Source of the DNA: Opitutales bacterium
GTDB lineage: Bacteria; Verrucomicrobiota; Verrucomicrobiia; Opitutales; Coraliomargaritaceae
Direction: 5' to 3'
DNA length: 32,000 nt
Assembly (NCBI GenBank): GCA_049606355.1
Contig: JBMYVL010000007.1
Coordinates: 55,406-87,405, forward strand
This document shows positions 4,270 through 27,228 of the stretch, in pieces. Under the pieces are notes generated by a model, which was not told where the DNA came from, made no database searches, and saw nothing but the letters and a program-made list of their open reading frames with translations. The first letter of the stretch is position 1. Each line of letters begins with the position of its first letter. The position numbers and the translations under genes were made by a program.

Positions 4270-4713
4270 ATGCCAAAACCTAAAATCCTCATTCTCTGTA
4301 CCGGTAATTCCTGCCGAAGTCACATGGCGGAAGCCATCTTACGCAATGCTGCGGGTGATTTAATGGAGGTCTACAGCGCCGGTTCAAAACCAAAGGGCGC
4401 CGTGCACCCGCTGGCGATTCAAGCCATCGAAGAGCTCGGTATCAGCACCGCTGGGCACAGCTCCGATCACCTCGATCAGTACTTGGATGCCGGCATCACG
4501 ACCGTCATCACGGTATGTGGCAATGCCGACCAAGCCTGCCCCACCTTCCCCGGAATGCTGCATCGCTATCACTGGGGTTTTGAGGACCCTCCGCATGCAC
4601 AGCGCGATGGCGAAAGTGAAATCGAAGCTTTCCGTCGCATTCGCGATGAGATCCGGCTGGTCTTCGAGGCATATGCCGCAGGCTACCGTGACGCGCTTCA
4701 GGCAACCGGCTGA
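4270..4713 (+). CDS. arsC: arsenate reductase, low-molecular-weight phosphatase (thioredoxin-coupled) type
   Basis: N-terminal [18 protein letters not shown] is the CX5R P-loop of LMW-PTP ArsC. Further Cys lie in [13 protein letters not shown]. Length 147 aa. Confidence 0.9.
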
Positions 4714-4727
4714 ACTATCGAGACCGA

Positions 4728-5381
4728 ATGCGAAATCAATTGATCGCCGAGGGGATCGGGACGTACTTCCTCTATCTGATTATCGGAGTCTGCATCACCC
4801 CACCAAGTGTGGGCGCATTGACGCCGATCGCAGTCGCGCTGGGTTTGAGCGCATTGGTCTATGCCTGCGGCCATCTATCCAAAGCTCACTTCAACCCTGC
4901 AACAACGCTCACATACCTGTGCGCGGGGACGCATCCTCCCAAAGCCACGCTTCCGTACCTGGGCGCGATTCTGGCAGGGGCAGTCGCCGCAGCAGCCACC
5001 CTACCCTGGCTGAAGCCTGCAGGACTCAGCGAAGTCACTGCGCTGCCCTTGCAGCAACCGGCCGCTTGGATCGCAGAGTTCCTGTTCACCTTTGCACTGA
5101 TGTGGGTCATCCTCAATGTGGCGATCGCCAAAGGCACCCAAAACAATCCGTTTTATGGCAGTGCGATTGGCTTTATTGTCGGCGCGGGTGCCTTTGCCGT
5201 AGGGCCGATTTCGTTTGCCGCTTTTAATCCGGCCGTCACCTTGGCGCTGTGTATCAACGGCTTCCTCGCTTGGAGCACGCTACCCATTTATATTGCGGTA
5301 CAACTGGCCGCAGCCGCCGCGGCGGGCTTCCTGTTTCGCTCGATGCACATCACCGAGCCGAGCGAGCGCGTCAACCAGTAG
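4728..5381 (+). CDS. MIP-family channel (aquaglyceroporin, AqpS-like) at the end of the ars operon
   Basis: Two NPA boxes (HFNPATT and AFNPAVT) in a six-helix hydrophobic ORF. It starts 14 nt after arsC. Confidence 0.85.
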
Positions 5382-10964: not shown

Positions 10965-11696
10965 ATGGATCAGCATAAACCCCAACTTGCCTTCACCTTG
11001 ATTGAGATGGTCGGCATTCTGGCAATTATTGCCATATTAACCGGGGTGCTGGCCCCGCCCATCCTTGAGTCATTCCGCAATGAACAGATTGAGTTGACGA
11101 TTGATTCGATAAACGATGCGCGGCAAGCCGCTGCTTCTTATCAAGAGCACTACGGAGCATTTCCACTGGATACTGTGACGGCAACAAAAGGCATTATCAA
11201 TCATCGCAAGAATCCAACCGAACCGCTGCAAGTGCCCTCCACTGGCTTTGATTTTGGTGACATCTTAGTCTACCAAACATCACTTCTAGATACTGAAAAG
11301 ACCGCAATCGGAGCGGAAACCAAGGCGGACTCCGACCGCACGACAGTTAAATCATGGGCTATTGGCTGCGCAGCAATCCATTGCCGATTGACTGCTGGTG
11401 GCGGTGACAGCGGGCTTGCTTATGGAAGTGAAGGCTTTGTTTTTAAATCAGCCGAACACGCCGCATGTGTTGTCTATTACTACCTGCCAAATATAACTCG
11501 ACAAGAAGCGGCTGGATTGGGAATAAAAATGAACGGGGCCGACCCATCTAGTCTGATAGACGATGCAATCCTTGAGCAGTCACTGATTGGTAAAACTCCT
11601 GCCGAAGGCCTGCAAATTGCAGGCACTGATACGTGGTTCATCGCTAACCAACAAGGAGCGTCTTTCGACGCGTACATCTACCTTGCGCACGAGTAA
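10965..11696 (+). CDS. prepilin-type N-terminal cleavage/methylation domain protein (type IV pilin / T2SS pseudopilin-like), orphan
   Basis: N-terminus MDQHKPQLAFTLIEMVGILAIIAILTGVL is a class III signal (xFTLIE plus a hydrophobic helix). The rest has no motif I recognise. GC content is visibly lower than the flanks. Confidence 0.7.
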   Translation: MDQHKPQLAFTLIEMVGILAIIAILTGVLAPPILESFRNEQIELTIDSINDARQAAASYQEHYGAFPLDTVTATKGIINHRKNPTEPLQVPSTGFDFGDILVYQTSLLDTEKTAIGAETKADSDRTTVKSWAIGCAAIHCRLTAGGGDSGLAYGSEGFVFKSAEHAACVVYYYLPNITRQEAAGLGIKMNGADPSSLIDDAILEQSLIGKTPAEGLQIAGTDTWFIANQQGASFDAYIYLAHE

Positions 11697-11821: not shown

Positions 11822-13009
11822 CTAAGCCTTCGAGCGCACCGAATCGCCGGCAACAAAGCGCTCGATGCGATCGCAGGCCTCGAGAATGCGCTCATAACTG
11901 GTCGAAAAGCTCGCCCGCACAAAGCCGGCACCACTCTCGCCAAAGGCCGTTCCGGGCACGACCGCAACTTCCTCCTGCGCCAACAGTTCCTTACAGAAGT
12001 CGATCGATGGCTTGCCCGAGACTTGAATCGATGGGAACGCGTAGAAAGAGCCTCTCGGTGAGTGACAGTCGAGCCCCATCGCATTGAAACGACCGACGAT
12101 CAAATCGCGACGACGATGGTAGGCCTCCTTCATCTTGGCGACCGCAGGCGCGCCGTTCTTCAGCGCTTCAACCGCCGCCTCTTGCGATAGGATCGGCGCA
12201 CACAGCATGCTGTATTGATGAATCTTCATCATCGCCTCGATCAAGGGCTGCGGGCCACAGGCATAACCGATGCGGAAGCCCGTCATCGCAAAGGCCTTGG
12301 AGAAGCCATGCAGGAAAATAGTACGCTCCTGCATGCCGGGCAGTGAGGCGATACTGGTGTGCTCGCCCTCAAAGGTCAGCTCCGAGTAAATTTCGTCGCT
12401 GATGATGAGCAGGTCTTTCTCCACCGCAAATTTGGCGAGCTTTTCGAGCTTCGCCTTGTCGGTCACGCCACCGGTGGGATTGGTCGGGAAATTGAGAATC
12501 AGCACCTTGCAACCTGGCTCCCACGCCGCTGCCACACGCTCCGGATCGATGGCAAATTGATCTTCGGCCGCCGTCGCCACCCGAATGGGTTGGGCATGGG
12601 TCAACTGAATGCTGGGACTGTAGGAAACATAGCAGGGCTCGTGGTAGAGGACTTTATCCCCCGGGTTGAGCACCGCGCGCAAAGCGATGTCCAGTGCTTC
12701 CGACACACCGACTGCGACGAGCACCTCTTTTTCAGGATGATAGCTGAGCTCAAAATTCTGCTCCACATAGCGGCTGATCTCCCGGCGCAAACGCAGCAGT
12801 CCGAGATTATCGGTATAACTGGTGTGGCCCTTCTCGAGCGCAAAAATCGCCGCCTCGCGAATATGCCAAGGCGTGACGAAGTCCGGCTCACCGATCCCCA
12901 GTGAGATGGCCTGCGGCATCGCCGCGACAATGGCAAAAAAGTCACGAATCCCGGAACGTGGCAGCCCGCTGACGTGGTCGGCCACAAAACGTTGGCTGGA
13001 GCTTTCCAT
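11822..13009 (-). CDS. class I/II PLP-dependent aminotransferase (AlaT/YugH-like)
   Basis: SGIRDFF, GIGEPDFVTPWHIREA, NFPTNPTG and FSKAFAMTGFRIGY (PLP lysine) blocks. Its ATG shares one base with the stop of the upstream Lrp gene (TAATG). Confidence 0.88.
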   Translation of the reverse strand: MESSSQRFVADHVSGLPRSGIRDFFAIVAAMPQAISLGIGEPDFVTPWHIREAAIFALEKGHTSYTDNLGLLRLRREISRYVEQNFELSYHPEKEVLVAVGVSEALDIALRAVLNPGDKVLYHEPCYVSYSPSIQLTHAQPIRVATAAEDQFAIDPERVAAAWEPGCKVLILNFPTNPTGGVTDKAKLEKLAKFAVEKDLLIISDEIYSELTFEGEHTSIASLPGMQERTIFLHGFSKAFAMTGFRIGYACGPQPLIEAMMKIHQYSMLCAPILSQEAAVEALKNGAPAVAKMKEAYHRRRDLIVGRFNAMGLDCHSPRGSFYAFPSIQVSGKPSIDFCKELLAQEEVAVVPGTAFGESGAGFVRASFSTSYERILEACDRIERFVAGDSVRSKA

Positions 13010-13491
13010 TAGGGGCTGACGGCGGGCTTATCGCCGCTCTCAGTGGGTGAAAGCAACAGGTGCCCCTGCTCCTTGTAGGCGCGCAGCATGAAATGCGTCG
13101 CCGTCGACAACACCCCTTCAACACTGGCCAGACGCTCCGAAACAAAGCTGGCGACTTCACGGAGATCCTTACCCGTGGCAAAAATCAACAAGTCATAGCT
13201 GCCGGACATCAGGTAACAGGACTCGACTGCATCGAACTGGCTGATGCGCGCCGCAAGACGGTCAAAGCCACCGTCGCGCTCCGGGCTGATTTTGACTTCG
13301 ATCACCGCTCGTACGATATCCTCCTGCGCACGCTCGGGGTTGAGCACGGGGCGCCAACCCAGCAAGATATGCTCGGCTTGTAGGCGCTCGATTTCAGCGC
13401 GCACCGCGGCCTCACTCAAGTCGAGAACTTGAGCCATTTGGGCAGTGTCGAGGCGCTCACCTTCGAGAATTAGTTGCAGGACGGAACTCAT
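13009..13491 (-). CDS. Lrp/AsnC-family transcriptional regulator (AlaR/YugG-like pairing with the aminotransferase)
   Basis: 160 aa. An N-terminal HTH (LDTAQMAQVLDLSEAAVRAEIERLQ) is followed by a RAM-like domain (AVIEVKISPE...CYLMSGSYDLLIF). Confidence 0.85.
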   Translation of the reverse strand: MSSVLQLILEGERLDTAQMAQVLDLSEAAVRAEIERLQAEHILLGWRPVLNPERAQEDIVRAVIEVKISPERDGGFDRLAARISQFDAVESCYLMSGSYDLLIFATGKDLREVASFVSERLASVEGVLSTATHFMLRAYKEQGHLLLSPTESGDKPAVSP

Positions 13492-13519
13492 AAGTGTGCG
13501 AGTAAGAGCGGCTTTGTGG

Positions 13520-13539
13520 AAAAAAGCAAAATGATTTGC
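13520..13539 (-). terminator. weak candidate terminator after the OleB-like gene
   Basis: Minus strand reads GCAAA-TCAT-TTTGC followed by TTTTTT. The stem is only 5 bp and AT-rich. Confidence 0.3.
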
Positions 13540-13575
13540 GCACCTCCCCAGGGCGCGCCGACCGTCCGAGGCAAC

Positions 13576-14466
13576 TTAGGCATCCAGAAAACCTTGAATC
13601 CGGGTGGCCACTTCAAGACCGCCATCCTCTAAAATATAATGCCCGTACTTCGGGAAGTACTCCAGCGCCGCCTGCGGAAAGATCGTCTGCCAGCGCTTGA
13701 GGAAATGACGATTGAAGCAGAAATCCTTACCGCCCCAGACGATCTGAATCGCTTTGTCCGCCAATTGCGGCAACTGCCTTTCAACTTCCTGAAGTGTGGC
13801 ATAACTCGGATGTCCCGCCCGCAGCGGGATATCTTTAACAAAATGCCAATTCGCCACCCGCGTCGCCCAGCTACGGTAGGGCCAGAGGAGGCCACGCTTG
13901 ACCGCGGGCGACAGTGGAATCCGCACCGACATCGTAGCGGCGGGACCCGCGAACCCGTTGAGCCCACGGATCATCCACTCGCCGATCCAAGGGAGCTTCA
14001 CGGCGGCAATCCGCCACGGGATCCGCTTTGAACAAAATGCCGCGGTATTCAGCAGCACTAGCTTGTGCACTGCGTCCGGGCGGCGCCCGGCGAGACCGCA
14101 ACCAATCGCCCCCCCCCAGTCGTGCACGATCAGGCTGAAGCGTTCGATCGCAAGGTGATCCATCAAGCAAGCGACATCGTCGATACGCTGCTTGAGGGTG
14201 TACGGGTAGCTCGCAGGCTTATCCGATAACCCACAACCGATGTGGTCCGGCACGATGCAGCGGTAGCCCGCGGCGCTGAGTTTATTGACTAAACCGCGAT
14301 AATAAAAGGACCAGGTCGGGTTGCCGTGCAACATAAGGACCACGGGGCCCGAGCCTTCGTCCAAATAGTGCAGTTTCGCACCCGAGGGTAGGTCCAGTAG
14401 GTTGCCCGAGTACGGATACTCCTCACGGACCTCAACCGGCAATTCAGACGCTCGTGAACGGATCAT
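13576..14466 (-). CDS. alpha/beta-fold hydrolase, haloalkane-dehalogenase-like (OleB-like)
   Basis: HGNPTWSFYYR and the nucleophile-elbow block LIVHDWGGAIG are typical of HLD/OleB-type hydrolases. ATG at 14466 was preferred because it forms an ATGA overlap with the upstream stop; the listed GTG is at 14478. Confidence 0.8.
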   Translation of the reverse strand: MIRSRASELPVEVREEYPYSGNLLDLPSGAKLHYLDEGSGPVVLMLHGNPTWSFYYRGLVNKLSAAGYRCIVPDHIGCGLSDKPASYPYTLKQRIDDVACLMDHLAIERFSLIVHDWGGAIGCGLAGRRPDAVHKLVLLNTAAFCSKRIPWRIAAVKLPWIGEWMIRGLNGFAGPAATMSVRIPLSPAVKRGLLWPYRSWATRVANWHFVKDIPLRAGHPSYATLQEVERQLPQLADKAIQIVWGGKDFCFNRHFLKRWQTIFPQAALEYFPKYGHYILEDGGLEVATRIQGFLDA

Positions 14467-15503
14467 GAATCGGGCCACTCCAGTGCCAGCATTAAACTAC
14501 TCAAGCCACTGCCGATGCCGAGCAGCGCGGCCTTTTGACCGGGGCCGTAGGCACCCGCCTCGATTGCCTGCGCCAAGGTGATCGGGCACGAAACCGAACC
14601 CACATTTCCCAAGGTCTCAAAGGTGGTGTAATCCTTGGCTAAATCGAGCCCCAGCGCCTTGAAGAGCTCGCGGGTGTGCGCCTTGCCGACTTGGTGAGTG
14701 ATCACCCGATCCGGCGTCGCAGCCGTCCAACCGGTAGCGTCGGTGAAGCGTTGCCACGCGCGCGTCGCCACGCCGATGCCGGCCGCCAACAGGGCTTCCG
14801 AATCCGTCAACATTTCCAAAGCATCCCCGGAGGTGTCCCCTTCGCACAGCGCGTTGTGCGAGGTGTCCGTCTCGCACACTGCCGCGCGTAGTGAGGGTTT
14901 GGATACATCCGTCAACTCTTTGCGACACACGACCGCTGCCACCGCCCCAGCGCCGATCGTCAAATTCGCAAAATAGGGTTTAATGGTCTGGCGCGTCAGT
15001 TCCGGATGGTGCAATTGCTGAATGGTATGCTCCACCAACGGTCGCCCATTTTCCCCGGAGCAAATGAGTGCGCGCTCGATTTGACCGCTCTCGATCATGC
15101 TACCCGCGACCACCAATGCGTTGAGGAAGCCTAAGCAGGCATTCGAAAGGTCAAAGATCTGGGTGCCGCCGGACAGCCCGAGTAAGCCGTGCACATAGGA
15201 GGCCGTCGCCGGCTCCAAGCGGTCGCGGCAGACTGCCGAATGGATCAATAAATCGATCGACTCACGCGGAAAAGCGGACTGTGCCAACACCGCCTCACCG
15301 GCTTGCGCCGAAGCGGCCGATGCCGTCGTGCCGGCAGGCCAAAAACGCCGCTCCTTAATGCCGGTCATCAGCTCCAAACGCCCTTGCGGTAAGCGCAAGC
15401 GCTCATACACCGGTGCCAACTTTGCCTCGATCGCAGCGGAAGTCCACACTTCCTCCGGAAGTGCCGTAGCAATGGACTCAATGACGACGTTGTTAAAATT
15501 CAC
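14463..15503 (-). CDS. KAS III-family thiolase-fold condensing enzyme (OleA-like / FabH-like)
   Basis: Candidate Cys-His-Asn triad in FDLSNACLGF, VITHQVGK and LGNVGSVS. The C-terminus LLGIGSGLSSLMLALEW resembles OleA rather than the FabH GGGFTWG ending. GTG start. Confidence 0.8.
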   Translation of the reverse strand: MNFNNVVIESIATALPEEVWTSAAIEAKLAPVYERLRLPQGRLELMTGIKERRFWPAGTTASAASAQAGEAVLAQSAFPRESIDLLIHSAVCRDRLEPATASYVHGLLGLSGGTQIFDLSNACLGFLNALVVAGSMIESGQIERALICSGENGRPLVEHTIQQLHHPELTRQTIKPYFANLTIGAGAVAAVVCRKELTDVSKPSLRAAVCETDTSHNALCEGDTSGDALEMLTDSEALLAAGIGVATRAWQRFTDATGWTAATPDRVITHQVGKAHTRELFKALGLDLAKDYTTFETLGNVGSVSCPITLAQAIEAGAYGPGQKAALLGIGSGLSSLMLALEWPDS

Positions 15504-15621
15504 GACCTAGGGTTACGCGATGCGGCTTAGAGGTTGCGAGGTTTTTCTCGCGACGAGTCTGCTTGCGAGGCCGACGTCTTCAACAAGCCTTCCTGCAAGA
15601 CATCCTCGTCCACATAAATAC

Positions 15622-16418
15622 CTAGCTTCGCATGGCATCCGCGATCACATCCTTATCGAAGTAATTTCGATCCATCCCGGCATTAACCACGATGCCTTGG
15701 CCATTGATACCGCTCGAGGCGGGGCTCAACAGGAAGAGTGCCGTATTGGCGACTTCCTGAGTGGTGAGGTTCTGTTTCCGCAAGGTCAGTTTCTCCGCAT
15801 ACAGGTAGCTCTCGATGTATCCCGGAATACCCGCCGAGGCACTGGTTTTGAGTGGACCCGCGTTGACGGTGTTGAAGCGCACGCCGCTATCGTTACTAAA
15901 GGACTTGGCCAAATTATACGAGCAGGTCTCCAGCGCCGCCTTAATCGGTGCCATGTAGCCGTAATTTTCCGCGGTTACATCGGTTGAGGAAATACCGATC
16001 GACACCACCGAAGCGTCCGTAGCCAGATACGGCTTGAAGGCATTCGCGACCTCCACCAGCGAAAACGCCGAAATCGACGTCGCTTGCAGGAAGTCCTTCC
16101 GCAGGGTTTCATGAAAGGGTTTGAAACCGTCCGAGTAGTTGGCAAAGGCGATCGAGTGTACGATCCCATCCAGTGGGCCGTGGTCGGTGCCCACGTCCTT
16201 CGCTAGGGCTGCGATCTGCTCGGGGAATTCCACATCGCAGAGGTAGGCTTTGCGGTCGCCAAACAGCTTTTGCAAGCTCTCCAGCCGCGCCGGCGAGCGC
16301 ACGCTGTGGATCACTTCCGCGCCCTCGGCTTCGAGCGACTGGGTAATCGCCCATGCGACGCTCTTACGATTCGCCACTCCCATAACGAGGAAGCGCTTGC
16401 CTTGTAGCCCTAAGAAAC

Positions 16419-16422
<4 letters not shown>
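15622..16422 (-). CDS. fabI: enoyl-ACP reductase (NADH), FabI type
   Basis: MSFLGLQGKRFLVMGVANRKSVAWAI is the FabI N-terminus. An SDR fold with a Y...K active-site region follows (YGYMAPIKAALE). The GTG start overlaps the FabZ-like stop (GTGA). Confidence 0.88.
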
Positions 16423-16862
<440 letters not shown>

Positions 16863-16924
16863 GCCAGCAGTGAATGCTGAATTGGGCGGAATGCACGCAA
16901 GAAATGTCGCGCACAGCGCAAAAG

Positions 16925-17911
16925 CTAAACGCGCTCGAGCAGGGCCGTGGCCGCAGCGAGGCCGGACAAGGCCGCACCTTCAACCCGCGGCCCGCCAAAC
17001 GCATCGCCTGCCAAGACGACATTCAATGCCTCGACCGCAAAATACGGCTGCGGCCAGGGATTCAGCGGCAGGGTGAAGCCCCACCGGTGACAGCAGAAGT
17101 CCACCACAGCACCCGGAATAAATTCCTGCGCAGCAGCAAGCATGAGTTGACCGCGCACGGCATCACTCGAGTGCCAATGTGCCGCGGCGAATTCGGGGGT
17201 AGCGTGTAAGGTCAATGCAGTCACTTCCGGCGAGATGCCCTTCATCTGGTTATCAGCGATCCATGCCAGCGGCCCTGTGCTCGGCTTGATCGCGCCCGGA
17301 TCGGGGATGCGACTGGGAGCATCGAGAATCGCCAGCGTGGCCAGACCTTTGGCATAACGACAGTGTTGCAAGTGGGGCAACTGCTGGCCCGCCCAATTCA
17401 GTCCAGTTGTCGCCATCAGTAGCAAGGCCTGCGGTAAGGGTGTCGTCAAAATAAGTTGTTCGGCGGTAAAGCTACGGTCTTGTTGGGAGCGAGCGATCCA
17501 GCGATCATTGGTGCGTACCAAAGAGTCGATCTTTTCACCGCTGCGGACATCGAGTGTTGCCGCCAAATACTTCGGAAGCGCATTCATCCCGGAAACTCCA
17601 CAATAACGCGGGTACCCCGCCGGGTTGTTATCCCAGGGTGCCTGCCGAAACCACTCGCGAATCACTCCGGCAGCGAGCCAACGCTCAACATAAGGCTGCA
17701 GGCGCGGGTCGCGCACGGTAAAAAACTGCGCGCCATGGTCGATCCGTGCGCCGCTCATGAGGCGCGTCGATAGCCGCCCGCCGACACCGCGCCCCTTATC
17801 CACCACCAGGACACGCGCCCCCTGTGCTTGCAACTCAGTCGCGCACAGCAAGCCCGAAATCCCGGCACCGATGATCAGTACATCGACCGCATCACGATTC
17901 ACCATCTGCAT
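16925..17911 (-). CDS. NAD(P)/FAD-dependent oxidoreductase (COG3380 / renalase- or amine-oxidase-like)
   Basis: The dinucleotide fold VDVLIIGAGISGLLCATELQAQGARVLVVDKGRGVGGR lies near the N-terminus. Start trimmed to ATG 17911 (or 17905); either overlaps the upstream stop at 17892-17894. Confidence 0.72.
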   Translation of the reverse strand: MQMVNRDAVDVLIIGAGISGLLCATELQAQGARVLVVDKGRGVGGRLSTRLMSGARIDHGAQFFTVRDPRLQPYVERWLAAGVIREWFRQAPWDNNPAGYPRYCGVSGMNALPKYLAATLDVRSGEKIDSLVRTNDRWIARSQQDRSFTAEQLILTTPLPQALLLMATTGLNWAGQQLPHLQHCRYAKGLATLAILDAPSRIPDPGAIKPSTGPLAWIADNQMKGISPEVTALTLHATPEFAAAHWHSSDAVRGQLMLAAAQEFIPGAVVDFCCHRWGFTLPLNPWPQPYFAVEALNVVLAGDAFGGPRVEGAALSGLAAATALLERV

Positions 17912-18809
17912 CCTTTTGTAAGCAAGCGTGCAAGGCAGCTTCGAGCGTCGGCGTTTGCCATTCAAACCCCATCGCGCGAAGTCTTTGCGGATCGATCTGC
18001 ATATCTGCCAACAACGTTTCATCCGCCATCGCACCGAACATCAGACGCGCCATGCAAGCCGGGAGCGGTAGCAAAGCTGGGCGTCGCAACGTGCGGGCCA
18101 GCGCCGCAGTGAATGCCCGGTTGCTCAGTGCCTGCGGCGCCACCGCATTAATCGGCCCCGCCAAGGTAGCATCTTCGATCGCGCGGAGGTATACCGCCAC
18201 TAAATCGGATAAACAGATCCAACTCATGAATTGCTGGCCGGTGCCCAGCCGACCGCCGAGGCCAAGCTTGAACGGGGGTAATAACTTCGCCAGTGCCCCA
18301 CCCTGCGCACTCAGCACGATACCCGTGCGCACCTGAACCACGCGCCCACCCGCATCGCTGAGCGGCTTAGTGGCTGCCTCCCACTCGCGACAGACCTTGG
18401 CCAAAAAGCCTGCACCGCTAGACGACCGTTCATCGGTGCGGGCACGGCACGCATAGCCGTAGTAATTAATACCGGAAGCGAGAATCAACGGCGGTGGCGA
18501 ATCGCGGCGGCACAATTCAGCCACCAGCATCGCCGTGCTCTGCACGCGACTGTCCCGAATGCGCCTGCGGCGAGCCGCCGTCCAACGCTGGGCAATGGGC
18601 TCACCCGCGAGGTGCACCACGGCAGCAACACCATCGAGGGCTGTCGTATCCATCTGGCCGCGTGCCGGATCCCAACAACGCCCGTCCGGCAGAGTCGGTG
18701 CGCGCGAGAGTTCACGGATCGCATAACCACGCGCCTGCAAGGTCCGGCACAAGGCCGAACCAACGAGTCCGGAGGCTCCACTCACCACAATTGTACCCAA
18801 ATCACGCAT
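17892..18809 (-). CDS. TIGR01777-family atypical SDR (epimerase-like, YfcH/SDR39U1 type with a DUF1731 C-terminus)
   Basis: VVSGASGLVGSAL Rossmann motif, HLAGEPIAQRWT block and C-terminal PQRLRAMGFEWQTPTLEAAL. Start trimmed from 18896 to ATG 18809, 4 nt after the photolyase stop. Confidence 0.72.
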   Translation of the reverse strand: MRDLGTIVVSGASGLVGSALCRTLQARGYAIRELSRAPTLPDGRCWDPARGQMDTTALDGVAAVVHLAGEPIAQRWTAARRRRIRDSRVQSTAMLVAELCRRDSPPPLILASGINYYGYACRARTDERSSSGAGFLAKVCREWEAATKPLSDAGGRVVQVRTGIVLSAQGGALAKLLPPFKLGLGGRLGTGQQFMSWICLSDLVAVYLRAIEDATLAGPINAVAPQALSNRAFTAALARTLRRPALLPLPACMARLMFGAMADETLLADMQIDPQRLRAMGFEWQTPTLEAALHACLQKDADGES

Positions 18810-18813
18810 CCCA

Positions 18814-20250
18814 TTAACGTTTAAAGGCTTCAAAGGCTGCCAAGGCGCGCGCACGCCCCTGTGCATGCTCAACAACGGGTTTGGGGTAGTCGACATCCAG
18901 CGTGATACCTGCCGCGTCGAGAACCGCAGCCGGCGCTTCCCAAGGCGTGTGGATATACTTCGCGGGTAAACGCGCCAACTCGGGAACGAAGCGCTTTACA
19001 TAGGCGCCCTCGGGATCAAATTTTTTGCCCTGAATGATCGGATTAAACACGCGGAAATACGGCGCCGCATCTGCCCCACAACCACCGCTCCATTGCCAGC
19101 CAAGCGTGTTACTCGCCAAGTCCGCATCGACCAAGGTATCCCAAAACCAGCGGGCGCCCTGCTGCCAGTCCTGCAGCAAATGCTTCACCAACAACGACGC
19201 AGCAATCATACGCACGCGATTGTGCATCCAGCCGGTCTGCCACAACTCGCGCATTCCCGCGTCCACAATGGGGTAGCCGGTTTTTCCCATCTGCCAACGG
19301 TGTTGCAACTCTGCATCATACTCCCAGGGGAAGTTTGCATACTGCGGCTGTAAGGGCTGGTCGGGTGTCTGCGGAAAATGGTAGAGCACATGGTAGGCGA
19401 ACTCCCGCCAGTATATCTCCTTCAAAAAGACATGCGGACCCTGCTGGGATGCATCGCAATGCGTTTGGAGTGCGCGGACGATCTGCCGCGGGCCAATCTG
19501 CCCGAAATGCAGGTAGGGCGAGAGCTGGGAGGTGCCGACCTGATCCGGCCGGTCGCGCGCTGCCGAGTAATCCGCGACAGGCCCGTGTAGAAAATTTTGC
19601 AAACAGTGGTGTGCACCCGCTTCAGACACCTCCCAGCGATCTGCAAACCCGACATGCCAATCTATGTCTGGCATGAGCTGTAGCTCCTCCAAGGCGAGCG
19701 TAGGCGGCATCCGCTCGATACAACGCAGCGCCGCGACATCCACTTCGACGGGTGCCGGAGGTGTCCGCGCAGAGACCGTTTTGAAATACGGGGTATAGAC
19801 CTTGTAAGGCTGGCCTGACTGACTGCTCACTGTATGGGGTTCGTTGAGCAAAGCAGAATTAAAACTCTGGACGTCCAACCCGTCCTCAAAGAAGGCACGC
19901 TTGCACTGCGCATCCAACTCGCGCAGTGGGCTCTCGTAGCGCCGATTCCAAAAAATACGGGTCGCGCCCGTTTCACGTGCCAGCTCCTGGAGTATCTGGA
20001 GTGACGGTCCTTTGCGTAGAATCAATCCGCCACCGAGCTCGCGGAACACCCGCTGGAGGCTGTGCAAGGCATGGTGCAGCCACCATTTCGAGGCCGCGCC
20101 CGGCTGCCAGTTACCAAACGATTGTGGGTCCCAAATAAAGACTGGGACGACCGGACTGCCGGCAGCAATGGCAGCCGCCAGTGCCGCATTGTCAGCAATA
20201 CGCAGATCATTTCGTAACCATAGCAGTGTCGGAGCAGTGTTCACACTCAA
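18814..20250 (-). CDS. phr: deoxyribodipyrimidine photo-lyase (class I CPD photolyase/cryptochrome family)
   Basis: LLWLRNDLRIADNAAL N-terminus and the FAD-binding C-terminal blocks TGYPIVDAGMRELWQTGWMHNRVRM and LGWQWSGGCGADAAPYFRVFNP. TTG start at 20250 (GTG alternative at 20244). Confidence 0.9.
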   Translation of the reverse strand: MSVNTAPTLLWLRNDLRIADNAALAAAIAAGSPVVPVFIWDPQSFGNWQPGAASKWWLHHALHSLQRVFRELGGGLILRKGPSLQILQELARETGATRIFWNRRYESPLRELDAQCKRAFFEDGLDVQSFNSALLNEPHTVSSQSGQPYKVYTPYFKTVSARTPPAPVEVDVAALRCIERMPPTLALEELQLMPDIDWHVGFADRWEVSEAGAHHCLQNFLHGPVADYSAARDRPDQVGTSQLSPYLHFGQIGPRQIVRALQTHCDASQQGPHVFLKEIYWREFAYHVLYHFPQTPDQPLQPQYANFPWEYDAELQHRWQMGKTGYPIVDAGMRELWQTGWMHNRVRMIAASLLVKHLLQDWQQGARWFWDTLVDADLASNTLGWQWSGGCGADAAPYFRVFNPIIQGKKFDPEGAYVKRFVPELARLPAKYIHTPWEAPAAVLDAAGITLDVDYPKPVVEHAQGRARALAAFEAFKR

Positions 20251-20336
20251 CTAAGCGTACTGCACGATCAAAACTTACACCCCAGAAGTACCGACTCCCA
20301 CTTGATTCTTTTCCAAAAGCTGGCAGCATCGCTGGC

Positions 20337-20942
20337 ATGAATACTTTCACCGCCATCCAAGAACGTCGTTCGATCAAACATTTCGATCCCCAGCACCAAA
20401 TGTCCGCTGCAGAAATCCGCCAATTGATGGAAGCGGCGCTGCTCTCACCCACTTCATTTAACATGCAGAATTGGCGCTTTGTGGTGGTGACGGAAGCTGA
20501 GAAAAAAGAAGCCATCCGCGCCGCCGCGTGGAACCAGGCGCAATGCAGCGAAGCCTCGATCGTGATACTCCTCTGCGCAAATCTGCAGGCCCACGAGGAC
20601 GGTGAACGTTACTGGATCCATGCACCACAAGCGGTGCGTGATGTTCTGGTGCCGATGATTGCACCTTTCTATGAAACGAACCCACAACTACAGCGTGATG
20701 AAGCGATGCGCTCCATCGGCATCGCCGCGCAAACGCTTATGCTCAGCGCGAAAGCCATGGGCTACGACAGTTGCCCGATGATCGGGTTTGATCCGAAAAA
20801 AGTTGCGGAGATCATCCATCTCCCCGAGCAGCATTTAATCGGAATGATGCTAACTGTCGGCAAAGCCATCCAGCCCGCCAATGAGCGCGGGGGGCAACTC
20901 CCATACGAGGAAGTCGTTTTCGGCGAAGCATTTTCTAAATAA
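20337..20942 (+). CDS. nitroreductase-family NAD(P)H flavin oxidoreductase
   Basis: MNTFTAIQERRSIKHFD and SPTSFNMQNWRFVVV blocks. Start trimmed from 20181 to ATG 20337. Divergent from phr. Confidence 0.85.
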   Translation: MNTFTAIQERRSIKHFDPQHQMSAAEIRQLMEAALLSPTSFNMQNWRFVVVTEAEKKEAIRAAAWNQAQCSEASIVILLCANLQAHEDGERYWIHAPQAVRDVLVPMIAPFYETNPQLQRDEAMRSIGIAAQTLMLSAKAMGYDSCPMIGFDPKKVAEIIHLPEQHLIGMMLTVGKAIQPANERGGQLPYEEVVFGEAFSK

Positions 20943-26673: not shown

Positions 26674-27228
26674 CTATTCGATCACATCCATCTGCTCCTG
26701 CAGCGGTGTTTGCCAATTCGTGCACTGCTCTTTCGCCTGTGCAGTTAGCTGCATAATCAAGCCGGCTCCATATCGGGTGCCCATACCTGCCGCAACGGCC
26801 ATCAGCAAGAGAACCGTCAGGCTGATTATATTCAGACCGATGAAACGCAGCGCTACTGTGCGCATGACGATCCCTAGCGCCAGCAACAAGCCGACCCAAG
26901 GCGATGCATGAGCCAAGTAAGTGAAGCCCCAATCGAAGAGCACCGGCTGCACATTTACAACGACTGCACTATAGACGAATAAGCCACCAATACTAGCTAC
27001 GACCACAACTAAGCTTGTTCTGAGTAAACTGCGTTCGCGGCCCAAAGTACTGGCCAAAAAATGCAGCACTAGAGTCACCGCACAGATAAAAACTAGGATC
27101 AAAAGATAACTTTCAAGCGAGCCATTGGCATAGCCCGTAAACTGTTCCAATTGGTCTTCAACGACCGGTAGTACGCGATGATGCATCAGTAAGATCAGGT
27201 TAAGGAAATCACCCCTTAAACTATGCAA
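26674..27228 (-). CDS. hypothetical integral membrane protein (about 4 TM helices)
   Basis: Hydrophobic segments YLLILVFICAVTLVLHFL, LVVVVASIGGLFVYSAVVV, VGLLLALGIVM and IISLTVLLLMAVAAGMG. I recognise no motif. TTG start at 27228 or ATG at 27186. Confidence 0.5.
   Translation of the reverse strand: MHSLRGDFLNLILLMHHRVLPVVEDQLEQFTGYANGSLESYLLILVFICAVTLVLHFLASTLGRERSLLRTSLVVVVASIGGLFVYSAVVVNVQPVLFDWGFTYLAHASPWVGLLLALGIVMRTVALRFIGLNIISLTVLLLMAVAAGMGTRYGAGLIMQLTAQAKEQCTNWQTPLQEQMDVIE

Follow-up and report, generated by a model that had tools for sequence, protein, structure and literature searches.

Why does a photolyase gene stand at the head of a string of lipid genes? The question is raised by a 32,000-nucleotide stretch of DNA from an Opitutales bacterium of the family Coraliomargaritaceae (hereafter the window), in which seven co-directional open reading frames (ORFs) occupy the minus strand between positions 13576 and 20250: phr, a TIGR01777-type short-chain dehydrogenase/reductase (SDR) gene, a gene for a renalase-like flavoprotein, fabZ-like and fabI-like genes, oleA and oleB. 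An earlier note on this DNA had described these seven genes in one direction, and all of its ORFs are present at their coordinates; profile searches likewise upheld each of its seven family assignments. The same note had proposed a light- or UV-co-regulated operon for a self-contained lipid or hydrocarbon pathway. We read the string differently and, with moderate confidence, as three adjacent units: a photorepair module that lies beside one end of an extended ole gene set. This reading draws on (i) breaks in synteny, (ii) the occurrence of units on their own (L085, L087 and L088 in our numbering of loci), (iii) differing evolutionary rates and (iv) separate promoter-like boxes.

The first unit would comprise phr with a divergent nitroreductase-family gene (NitroR), the SDR gene and the renalase-like gene. 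The second and third, fabZ-fabI and oleA-oleB, would form one end of a head-to-head olefin synthesis gene set common to Opitutia and to other, partly planctomycete-like, lineages. A family-specific rearrangement may have placed the photolyase module upstream of them, fabZ-fabI and oleA-oleB each retaining a promoter-like element of its own.

Breaks in synteny and signals at the junctions

We compared about 170 related loci. A one-genome-per-species scan gave 80 Opitutia loci with an oleA at 58–85% identity, onto which the window proteins were mapped; denominators are loci with sufficient sequence on the relevant side. oleB lay downstream of oleA in 71 of 78 Opitutia loci and fabI at most 3 kb upstream of it in 55 of 75, so that FabZ, FabI, OleA and OleB do make up a conserved lipid or hydrocarbon group. 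The order fabZ-fabI-oleA-oleB is a conserved feature of the class Opitutia, and about 50 loci have it without phr. All seven genes were found together in 8 of the 58 loci with sufficient upstream sequence, all of them Coraliomargaritaceae and two of them from a FabI-seeded search, and the photolyase heads the string only in this one family (5/80 species-level genomes, plus Coraliomargarita akajimensis).

In a neighbourhood survey of the kind that the earlier note had itself proposed, the seven-gene order recurs in at least eight other genomes of the family and so is not a chance one, but elsewhere the string splits into three blocks, and the breaks in synteny fall exactly at the gaps of 62 and 118 nt. 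Within the family, the flanking genes for phosphoglucomutase, an AsnC-type regulator, an aminotransferase, Der and Sod are equally syntenic, so that the seven-gene order gives no specific signal. Between fabI and oleA, one locus (L003) has an inserted gene on the opposite strand and two others (L010, 8562–10004, and L012) have a sigma-54 activator gene of the NtrC type, which also heads the Opitutaceae cluster. About 20 close relatives carry oleA-oleB with fabZ-fabI not within 10 kb of oleA.

The proteins of the string also differ in their divergence. The cultivated C. akajimensis DSM 45221 has orthologues of all seven genes (Caka_1906 to Caka_1900), to which the phr, SDR and renalase-like products are 65, 52 and 52% identical and FabZ, FabI, OleA and OleB 88, 88, 83 and 70%; neighbouring housekeeping proteins reach 81–91%. 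Judging by these identities, the proteins of the phr module evolve much faster than the lipid proteins.

Is the string one transcript? The junctions are as tight as the earlier note had measured them. A 4-nt gap separates phr from the SDR gene (ATG at 18809), which overlaps the flavoprotein gene by 20 nt (ATG at 17911); a 62-nt gap then leads to fabZ, a GTGA overlap (16419–16422) joins fabZ to fabI, a 118-nt gap leads to oleA and an ATGA overlap (14463–14466) joins oleA to oleB. Promoter-like elements are found at three places along this string (Table 1). In the spacer between NitroR and phr, the boxes TCAAGYGG and TGTAAGTTTT are kept in 13 related NitroR|phr spacers, including loci in which phr lies away from lipid genes; this spacer is probably the phr promoter/operator region and a candidate for one shared by both genes. 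Of 12 Coraliomargaritaceae loci, 11 retain the boxes before fabZ, among them two (L014, L017) in which another gene lies upstream. Before oleA, CTCG[CT] stands at −36 to −42 in 25 of 37 Coraliomargaritaceae or Puniceicoccaceae loci, regardless of the upstream gene, with a second box near −12. Because the fabZ and oleA boxes are conserved whichever gene precedes them, they argue for separate transcription units. The three sets may thus mark three separate promoter regions, the latter two of leaderless type; the spacing of the fabZ and oleA boxes from the start codons suggests leaderless or near-leaderless transcripts in the family.

Taken with the synteny breaks at the 62-nt and 118-nt gaps, the boxes upstream of fabZ and oleA speak against the single operon of the earlier note. 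Its only terminator, at 13520–13539, needs amending: a hairpin does follow oleB, but at 13558–13538, and a weaker one lies at 16921–16907, just past the flavoprotein stop. The hairpin after oleB is the strongest terminator-like one of the strand and is probably the end of an oleAB unit. Sigma-54 promoters, considered on account of the nearby activator gene in relatives, were set aside (24 matches where 21 were expected, and no match in the spacers concerned). A sigma-70 consensus scan of 12900–20700 gave 0 sites against 3.2 expected, the consensus being uninformative for this phylum.

Table 1. Features of the seven-gene string and its margins in the window.
Feature	Position	Strand	Description
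phr	18814..20250	-	cryptochrome/photolyase family, class-I cyclobutane pyrimidine dimer (CPD)-photolyase-like
TIGR01777 SDR	17892..18809	-	YfcH/SDR39U1-type extended SDR; photolyase module; not OleD
renalase-like flavin adenine dinucleotide (FAD) oxidase	16925..17911	-	COG3380/K06955; closes photolyase module
FabZ-like 3-hydroxyacyl-thioester dehydratase	16419..16862	-	PF07977
FabI-like enoyl-thioester reductase	15622..16422	-	PF13561; coupled translationally to fabZ
oleA, acyl-CoA:acyl-CoA alkyltransferase (head-to-head Claisen condensing enzyme)	14463..15503	-	
oleB, haloalkane-dehalogenase-like beta-lactone decarboxylase (predicted)	13576..14466 (alternative 14478)	-	
nitroreductase-family gene (NitroR)	20337..20942	+	divergent from phr; PF00881, 121 bits
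NitroR|phr spacer	20251..20336	.	conserved boxes TCAAGYGG and TGTAAGTTTT (20279-20270)
fabZ promoter-like boxes	16869..16897	-	CGTGCATT (16897-16890), TTCACT (16874-16869); -35/-12 from start codon
oleA promoter-like boxes	15511..15540	-	A-rich run + CTCGCA (15540-15535), GTAACC (15516-15511); -37/-13 from start codon
terminator-like hairpin	13520..13558	-	13558-13538, 7-bp stem, 6 GC pairs, then T-rich tail

The ole genes and the FabZ- and FabI-like pair

Do oleA and oleB belong to the olefin pathway? OleA carries PF08545 and PF08541, passes NF006720 (430 bits against a cut-off of 285) and, across its whole length, shares 37% identity with the crystallised OleA of Xanthomonas campestris (217–222 bits; best FabH, 76 bits). 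Its identity to the OleA of a canonical oleA-oleBC-oleD cluster (L093) is 48.5%, and to proteins of Coraliomargarita, Lentimonas and other Opitutales metagenome-assembled genomes (MAGs) 83–85%, which points to a Coraliomargarita-like source for the window. In the alignment, its Cys123, His270 and Asn300 correspond to C143, H285 and N315 of X. campestris OleA, and its Glu97 (LEPATAS) to the Glu of LEPSTAS in that enzyme; all four residues are invariant in 85 of 85 orthologues. FabH has a Phe (Phe87) at the position of the catalytic Glu. That the protein is instead the cell's FabH seems unlikely, given its invariant OleA-specific Glu and its far greater similarity to OleA. On identity, model score and catalytic residues, the gene is best regarded as a true Ole-family oleA, as the earlier note had called it. 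In X. campestris, Glu117 is given as the base for the non-decarboxylative Claisen condensation (Jensen et al. 2017, in the form in which PMC7064751 cites it).

Six gut- or rumen-associated Opitutales (L040, L043, L046, L048, L055, L063) have an oleA at 62–65% identity with the Glu, Cys, His and Asn intact; oleB, fabZ and fabI are absent within 10 kb of it.

OleB is an alpha/beta-hydrolase (PF00561) that scores 119 bits against the best solved haloalkane-dehalogenase-type protein. The active-site residues in its motifs HGNPTW, HDWGG, WGGKD and GHY (Asn, Trp, Asp, Trp, His, Asp) are invariant in 72–74 orthologues. A library-wide search with OleB returned many proteins of 843–917 residues that are 40–49% identical to it across the N-terminal 300 residues and whose C-terminal halves match NCBIfam models of OleC, the olefin beta-lactone synthetase, at 520–670 bits. 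Two of three such OleB-OleC fusions that we looked up are housed in canonical oleA-oleBC-oleD clusters (L091, L093), and the OleB domain of the L093 fusion shares 45% identity with OleB of the window. At 45–49% identity to the OleB domains of the fusions and with its catalytic residues invariant, the gene keeps the OleB-like call of the earlier note and is best taken as a true Ole-family oleB, with beta-lactone decarboxylation as the predicted activity. We know of no other characterised role for OleB.

Some OleB-like representatives (P0404, P0406, P0412, P0448 and P0533; 413–617 aa) have 130–330 extra residues at one end and are neither plain OleB nor OleB-OleC fusions. A gene for a 915-aa hybrid sensor kinase, absent from the window, follows oleB in L001 (12076–14823) and about 15 other loci.

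The FabZ- and FabI-like proteins keep their catalytic motifs and score below the curated equivalog cut-offs. The FabZ-like protein matches PF07977 at 85.6 bits and Escherichia coli FabZ at 75 bits, retains the catalytic His/Glu motif GHYPGNPIMPGVLLCEA, and falls narrowly below one equivalog cut-off (NF000582, 108.7 against 113) and clearly below another (103 against 155). The FabI-like protein matches PF13561 at 191 bits and Thermus FabI at 141 bits and keeps the Tyr-x6-Lys motif (YGYMAPIK, aligned to YNVMAIAK of Thermus FabI); it fails the FabI equivalog cut-offs (120–170 bits against 299–477). Its relatives bear JGI names of the FabI (K00208) type, and one version of PGAP calls the C. akajimensis orthologue FabI.

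What do these two genes accompany elsewhere? In Opitutaceae, a block is made up of a fabF-like gene, two genes for CrtI/carotenoid-isomerase-like flavoproteins (about 475 and 494 residues), fabZ, fabI, oleA and oleB, with the fabI stop 10–20 nt from the oleA start. We also built an OleC-domain alignment from the OleB-OleC fusions and scanned it against metagenome contigs, which returned 80 loci; those that could be named were Planctomycetes such as Gimesia maris, with no Opitutales among them. One of the 80 (L168, 2351–13336) carries oleA-oleB-oleC-oleD-fabF-like-AO-AO-fabG-like-fabZ-like-fabI-like on one strand within 11 kb, the AO genes being CrtI-like, and NCBIfam models confirmed its OleC and OleD. 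Its terminal FabI-like protein is 60% identical to that of the window and likewise below cut-off (about 175 bits). A fabF-like gene stands directly after oleD in 12 of the 80 OleC loci (L168, L161, L146, L135, L139, L140, L100, L122, L123, L165, L096, L144), usually followed by CrtI-like genes. The fabF-like proteins of these 12 loci are 66–75% identical to those of Opitutaceae and divergent from FabF (310 bits against a cut-off of 494). Genes of the tetrahydromethanopterin (H4MPT) pathway adjoin the cluster in L140, which suggests a planctomycete. Elsewhere, in lineages some of which are planctomycete-like, fab-like genes of the kind found in the window thus recur beside a complete Ole pathway.

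The CrtI-like flavoproteins form two families that we flag as uncharacterised. One or two of their genes lie directly upstream of fabZ-fabI-oleA-oleB in L071 (4337–7261) and about 35 other Opitutia loci. The proteins score far below all curated cut-offs, and a comparison with the PDB matched only their FAD-binding N-terminus. A gene for a GXGXG-domain protein (glutamate-synthase type) lies upstream of oleC in G. maris (L175, 9139–9960) and of oleA in L168 (65–820), which may be coincidence.

Are fabZ and fabI nevertheless ordinary genes of type II fatty acid synthesis (FAS-II)? They could be the housekeeping copies, next to oleA-oleB by a shared lipid neighbourhood and not as parts of a dedicated module, an explanation that we consider unlikely. 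It has in its favour the intact catalytic motifs, the core-gene-like 88% identity to the C. akajimensis orthologues, the FabI names given by JGI and PGAP, and the fact that the best 120 FabI matches are all at least 81% identical. The pair also stands alone in L088, amid restriction-modification and CrcB genes, and is away from oleA in the close relatives mentioned above. The co-directional block of L168 tells against it, since the same FabI-like subfamily is found there with fabF-like, CrtI-like and fabG-like genes and oleABCD. Genes for acpP, fabD and fabH usually mark housekeeping fab clusters, and the extended block has none of the three. Moreover, the linkage to oleA is class-wide and, in Opitutaceae, tight. 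No second copy of FabI, FabZ or OleA was found in 1.5 Mb of Opitutia loci, a sample too small to settle a housekeeping role.

The three-unit reading places the window beside two known systems. The OleABCD systems of X. campestris, Shewanella oneidensis and Micrococcus luteus share with it the Cys/Glu/His/Asn set of OleA and a haloalkane-dehalogenase-like OleB with Asp/His/Asp, here coupled translationally to oleA, and OleA and OleB of the window are 45–49% identical to the components of canonical oleA-oleBC-oleD clusters. However, the window has oleA and oleB without linked oleC and oleD, and the two genes are preceded by fabZ-like and fabI-like genes, to which relatives add fabF-like, fabG-like and two CrtI-family genes. 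In Shewanella, Geobacter and Gemmata, the olefin precursor comes from Pfa-type (type I) secondary lipid synthases whose genes are linked to ole (PMC3098273). The logic is the same, in that a dedicated set of genes for making acyl chains is joined to ole and proposed to feed OleA; the set here consists of discrete type-II FabF-, FabG-, FabZ- and FabI-like proteins with two CrtI-like ones, in place of the multidomain PfaABCD. We found no description in the literature of the arrangement of ole with fab-like and CrtI-like genes. What we observe appears to be the known Ole pathway in a split and extended form beside an independent photorepair module, a form that appears undescribed.

The photolyase module and the question of light

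To which neighbours do the SDR and the flavoprotein belong? The phr product has both photolyase domains at full length (PF00875, 165 bits; PF03441, 298 bits) and stays below the cut-off of all specific NCBIfam equivalogs (368 against 506, 356 against 885 and 403 against 604); its role as a photolyase is presumed from family membership. The SDR exceeds the TIGR01777 cut-off (284.8 bits against 207), and has the DUF1731 C-terminal domain (PF08338); against the OleD model it reaches 21.6 of the 580 bits required. The flavoprotein (328 aa) matches the bacterial renalase of Pseudomonas savastanoi pv. phaseolicola (PDB 4ZCC) over residues 9–327 against 3–326; the similarity is full-length but distant, at 104 bits (E = 9e-29). 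Human renalase (3QJ4) matches query residues 10–285 (E = 3.5e-12), and several relatives of the flavoprotein carry the JGI name 'renalase'. We regard it as a distant, full-length renalase homologue of putative activity. Renalase oxidises 2- and 6-dihydro-NAD(P).

The company that these genes keep is consistent across relatives. In other Opitutales (L085, L087), a divergent NitroR is followed by phr, a DPRP gene, the TIGR01777 SDR gene and the renalase-like gene, and then by unrelated genes, with no fab or ole. The SDR gene follows phr or phr-DPRP in these two loci and in L089, with or without lipid genes downstream. NitroR is a constant partner of phr across all relatives, and the NitroR(-)|phr(+) pair is retained even where phr is distant from fab and ole (L032, L033, L085, L087). 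Because the module occurs without fab or ole and the SDR scores so low on the OleD model, the SDR and the flavoprotein are best placed with the photolyase and not with the lipid genes, their own roles being putative. The earlier suggestions of a ketoreductase for the SDR and a pathway oxidoreductase for the flavoprotein thus lose their footing. COG3380 domains have been noted among the homologues of the PhrSph98 photolyase (bioRxiv 10.1101/2022.06.29.498140), which is consistent with an association of the flavoprotein with photolyase.

The DPRP gene (PF04244, photolyase-related) lies between phr and the SDR gene in L023 (3693–5204), L026, L085, L087 and L089; neither the window nor C. akajimensis has it. 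The phr of L089 comes as two separate ORFs, a probable sign of a frameshift or a pseudogene.

Could the seven genes nevertheless be one operon under light or UV control? In such an operon, headed by the photolyase, the SDR would act as the ketoreductase and the flavoprotein as an oxidoreductase of a pathway to a specialised lipid, ketone or olefin. Photolyase genes do occur with lipid-modifying genes in light or singlet-oxygen regulons, namely those of sigmaE-ChrR in Rhodobacter sphaeroides and LitR in Pseudomonas putida. There, as here, the photolyase gene is co-directional with genes for an SDR, an amine-oxidase-fold protein and lipid enzymes. However, the flavoprotein here is a renalase homologue and not of the COG2907/UfaD type of about 430 aa, the window has neither a methylase like cyclopropane-fatty-acid (CFA) synthase nor a regulator of the ChrR or LitR type, and the adjacency to lipid genes is specific to one family. 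The co-directional genes, the gaps of 4, 62 and 118 nt, the overlaps, the sole clear terminator after oleB and the order kept in at least eight related genomes are as such an operon would have them. It is nevertheless improbable in our view. The phr-SDR-renalase genes are found without fab or ole, the four lipid genes without phr in far more loci than hold all seven, the two oxidoreductases have other affinities and the phr-module proteins diverge much faster than the lipid proteins. The fabZ and oleA boxes are distinct and differ from the phr box, and the conserved order is shared by the housekeeping flanks.

A single case keeps the question of light alive. In L153 (1450–6558, Ga0209101_1004612), an unrelated high-GC locus, the stop of a gene for a 487-aa photolyase, 35% identical to that of the window, shares 4 nt with the start of oleB, downstream of which lie oleC and oleD. 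Such immediate photolyase-ole adjacency in 1 of 80 loci exceeds a rough expectation of about 0.04, assuming about 4000 genes per genome. With the comparative evidence mostly contrary, this case leaves the light- or UV-co-regulated lipid operon of the earlier note unproven rather than excluded, and the photolyase-lipid link is a weak one. A bolder proposal, speculative and on the unlikely side, is that Opitutia and partly planctomycete-like lineages share an extended ole supercluster (oleABCD, fabF/G/Z/I-like and two CrtI-like genes) that is the type-II counterpart of the Pfa synthases and is coupled to photolyase in at least two lineages. If so, the supercluster would both build the special acyl chains from which OleA forms membrane olefins and desaturate or isomerise them, and the coupling in Coraliomargaritaceae and in the lineage of L153 (phr-oleBCD) would point to light- or UV-linked protective hydrocarbons.

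Olefin synthesis beyond the window

How would an olefin be made? By analogy with the characterised Ole enzymes, and given the conserved residues observed, FAS-II-type enzymes would supply or tailor acyl thioesters in the source organism. OleA (Cys123 as nucleophile, Glu97 as base, with His270 and Asn300) would then join two acyl chains non-decarboxylatively into a 2-alkyl-3-ketoacid, OleD would reduce the 3-keto group of this product, OleC would form a beta-lactone and OleB (Asp of HDWGG, His of GHY) would convert the lactone by decarboxylation into a long-chain cis-olefin destined for the membrane. The window encodes the OleA and OleB steps only, plus the dehydratase and the enoyl reductase. 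It holds no acyl carrier protein (ACP) and no AMP-ligase, as the earlier note had seen; OleC and OleD are absent as well, and relatives add fabF-like, fabG-like and two CrtI-like genes and oleABCD, so that the pathway is not self-contained.

Where might oleC and oleD be? OleC and OleD references gave no tblastn match in the window, and neither gene was found within 10 kb of oleA in about 85 Opitutia loci with oleA. A scan of L001–L084 for the AMP-ligase motif had as its sole match an unrelated 689-aa ligase in L072. No OleA was found on plasmids or viral contigs. In the planctomycete G. maris, the ole loci are split: oleC-oleD-only loci (L116, L120, L121) belong to G. maris and relatives, and the complete G. 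maris genome shows the pair without other ole genes at that locus, which makes a split plausible in Opitutales too. The literature reports oleABCD from Opitutae MAGs (PMC5673642), oleC from Opitutaceae MAGs (PMC10176705) and OleA homologues in Opitutae (PMC7064751); the supplements of PMC7064751 and PMC5673642 contain nothing on Opitutae ole genes. Because of these reports, the strict conservation of OleB and the analogy with Gimesia, oleC and oleD are expected elsewhere in the source genome, where the fabF-like gene, the two CrtI-like genes and sometimes a fabG-like gene may also lie.

Several points weigh against three units with an olefin as their product. The olefin is predicted from the genes alone, and the internal promoters are proposed from sequence conservation. 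Given the short gaps and the weak hairpin after the flavoprotein gene, read-through from phr may occur. oleC and oleD are absent near oleA throughout the Opitutia loci, and their presence in the source organism is argued from literature statements and analogy. Finally, the FabZ- and FabI-like proteins are as conserved as housekeeping proteins and their relatives are named FabI by JGI, the C. akajimensis orthologue by PGAP; the two may be dedicated Ole-linked paralogues or the sole FAS-II copies.

If OleC and OleD were truly lacking from the lineage, OleA and the OleB-like protein, with FabZ and FabI, could give long-chain ketones, one possibility being spontaneous decarboxylation of the OleA product, or 2-alkyl-branched acids, the hydrolase acting as a thioesterase. 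OleA alone reportedly gives ketones in vivo, no Opitutia locus has OleC or OleD near oleA, and the gut-associated Opitutales keep oleA alone with its catalytic set intact; this route is nevertheless very unlikely, as the catalytic residues of OleB are invariant and beta-lactone decarboxylation is its sole characterised role, G. maris shows split oleAB and oleCD loci, fab-like genes are bridged physically to oleC-oleD in 12 loci, and oleC and oleD are reported in Opitutae (PMC5673642, PMC10176705).

The supply of acyl precursors for olefins, which is not settled in this bacterial group, gains a concrete candidate in the linkage of ole with dedicated-looking FabF-, FabG-, FabZ- and FabI-like genes and two CrtI-like genes. 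Bacteria make long-chain olefins mainly by the Ole pathway, which bears on membrane biology, marine hydrocarbon cycling and biofuels. The locus also calls for caution in annotation: a tight co-directional string is not necessarily one operon, and a TIGR01777 SDR or a renalase-like protein is not a lipid enzyme merely by its neighbours.

Three further ORFs of the window (4487–5227, 10965–11696 and 26674–27228; 184–246 aa) have no Pfam match, and an Rfam scan of the window gave tRNA-Met as its sole match. The remaining genes are those of an ordinary chromosome: CstA, riboflavin synthase, Sod, Der, the AsnC-type regulator with the aminotransferase, phosphoglucomutase, NadB, PanC and PanE.

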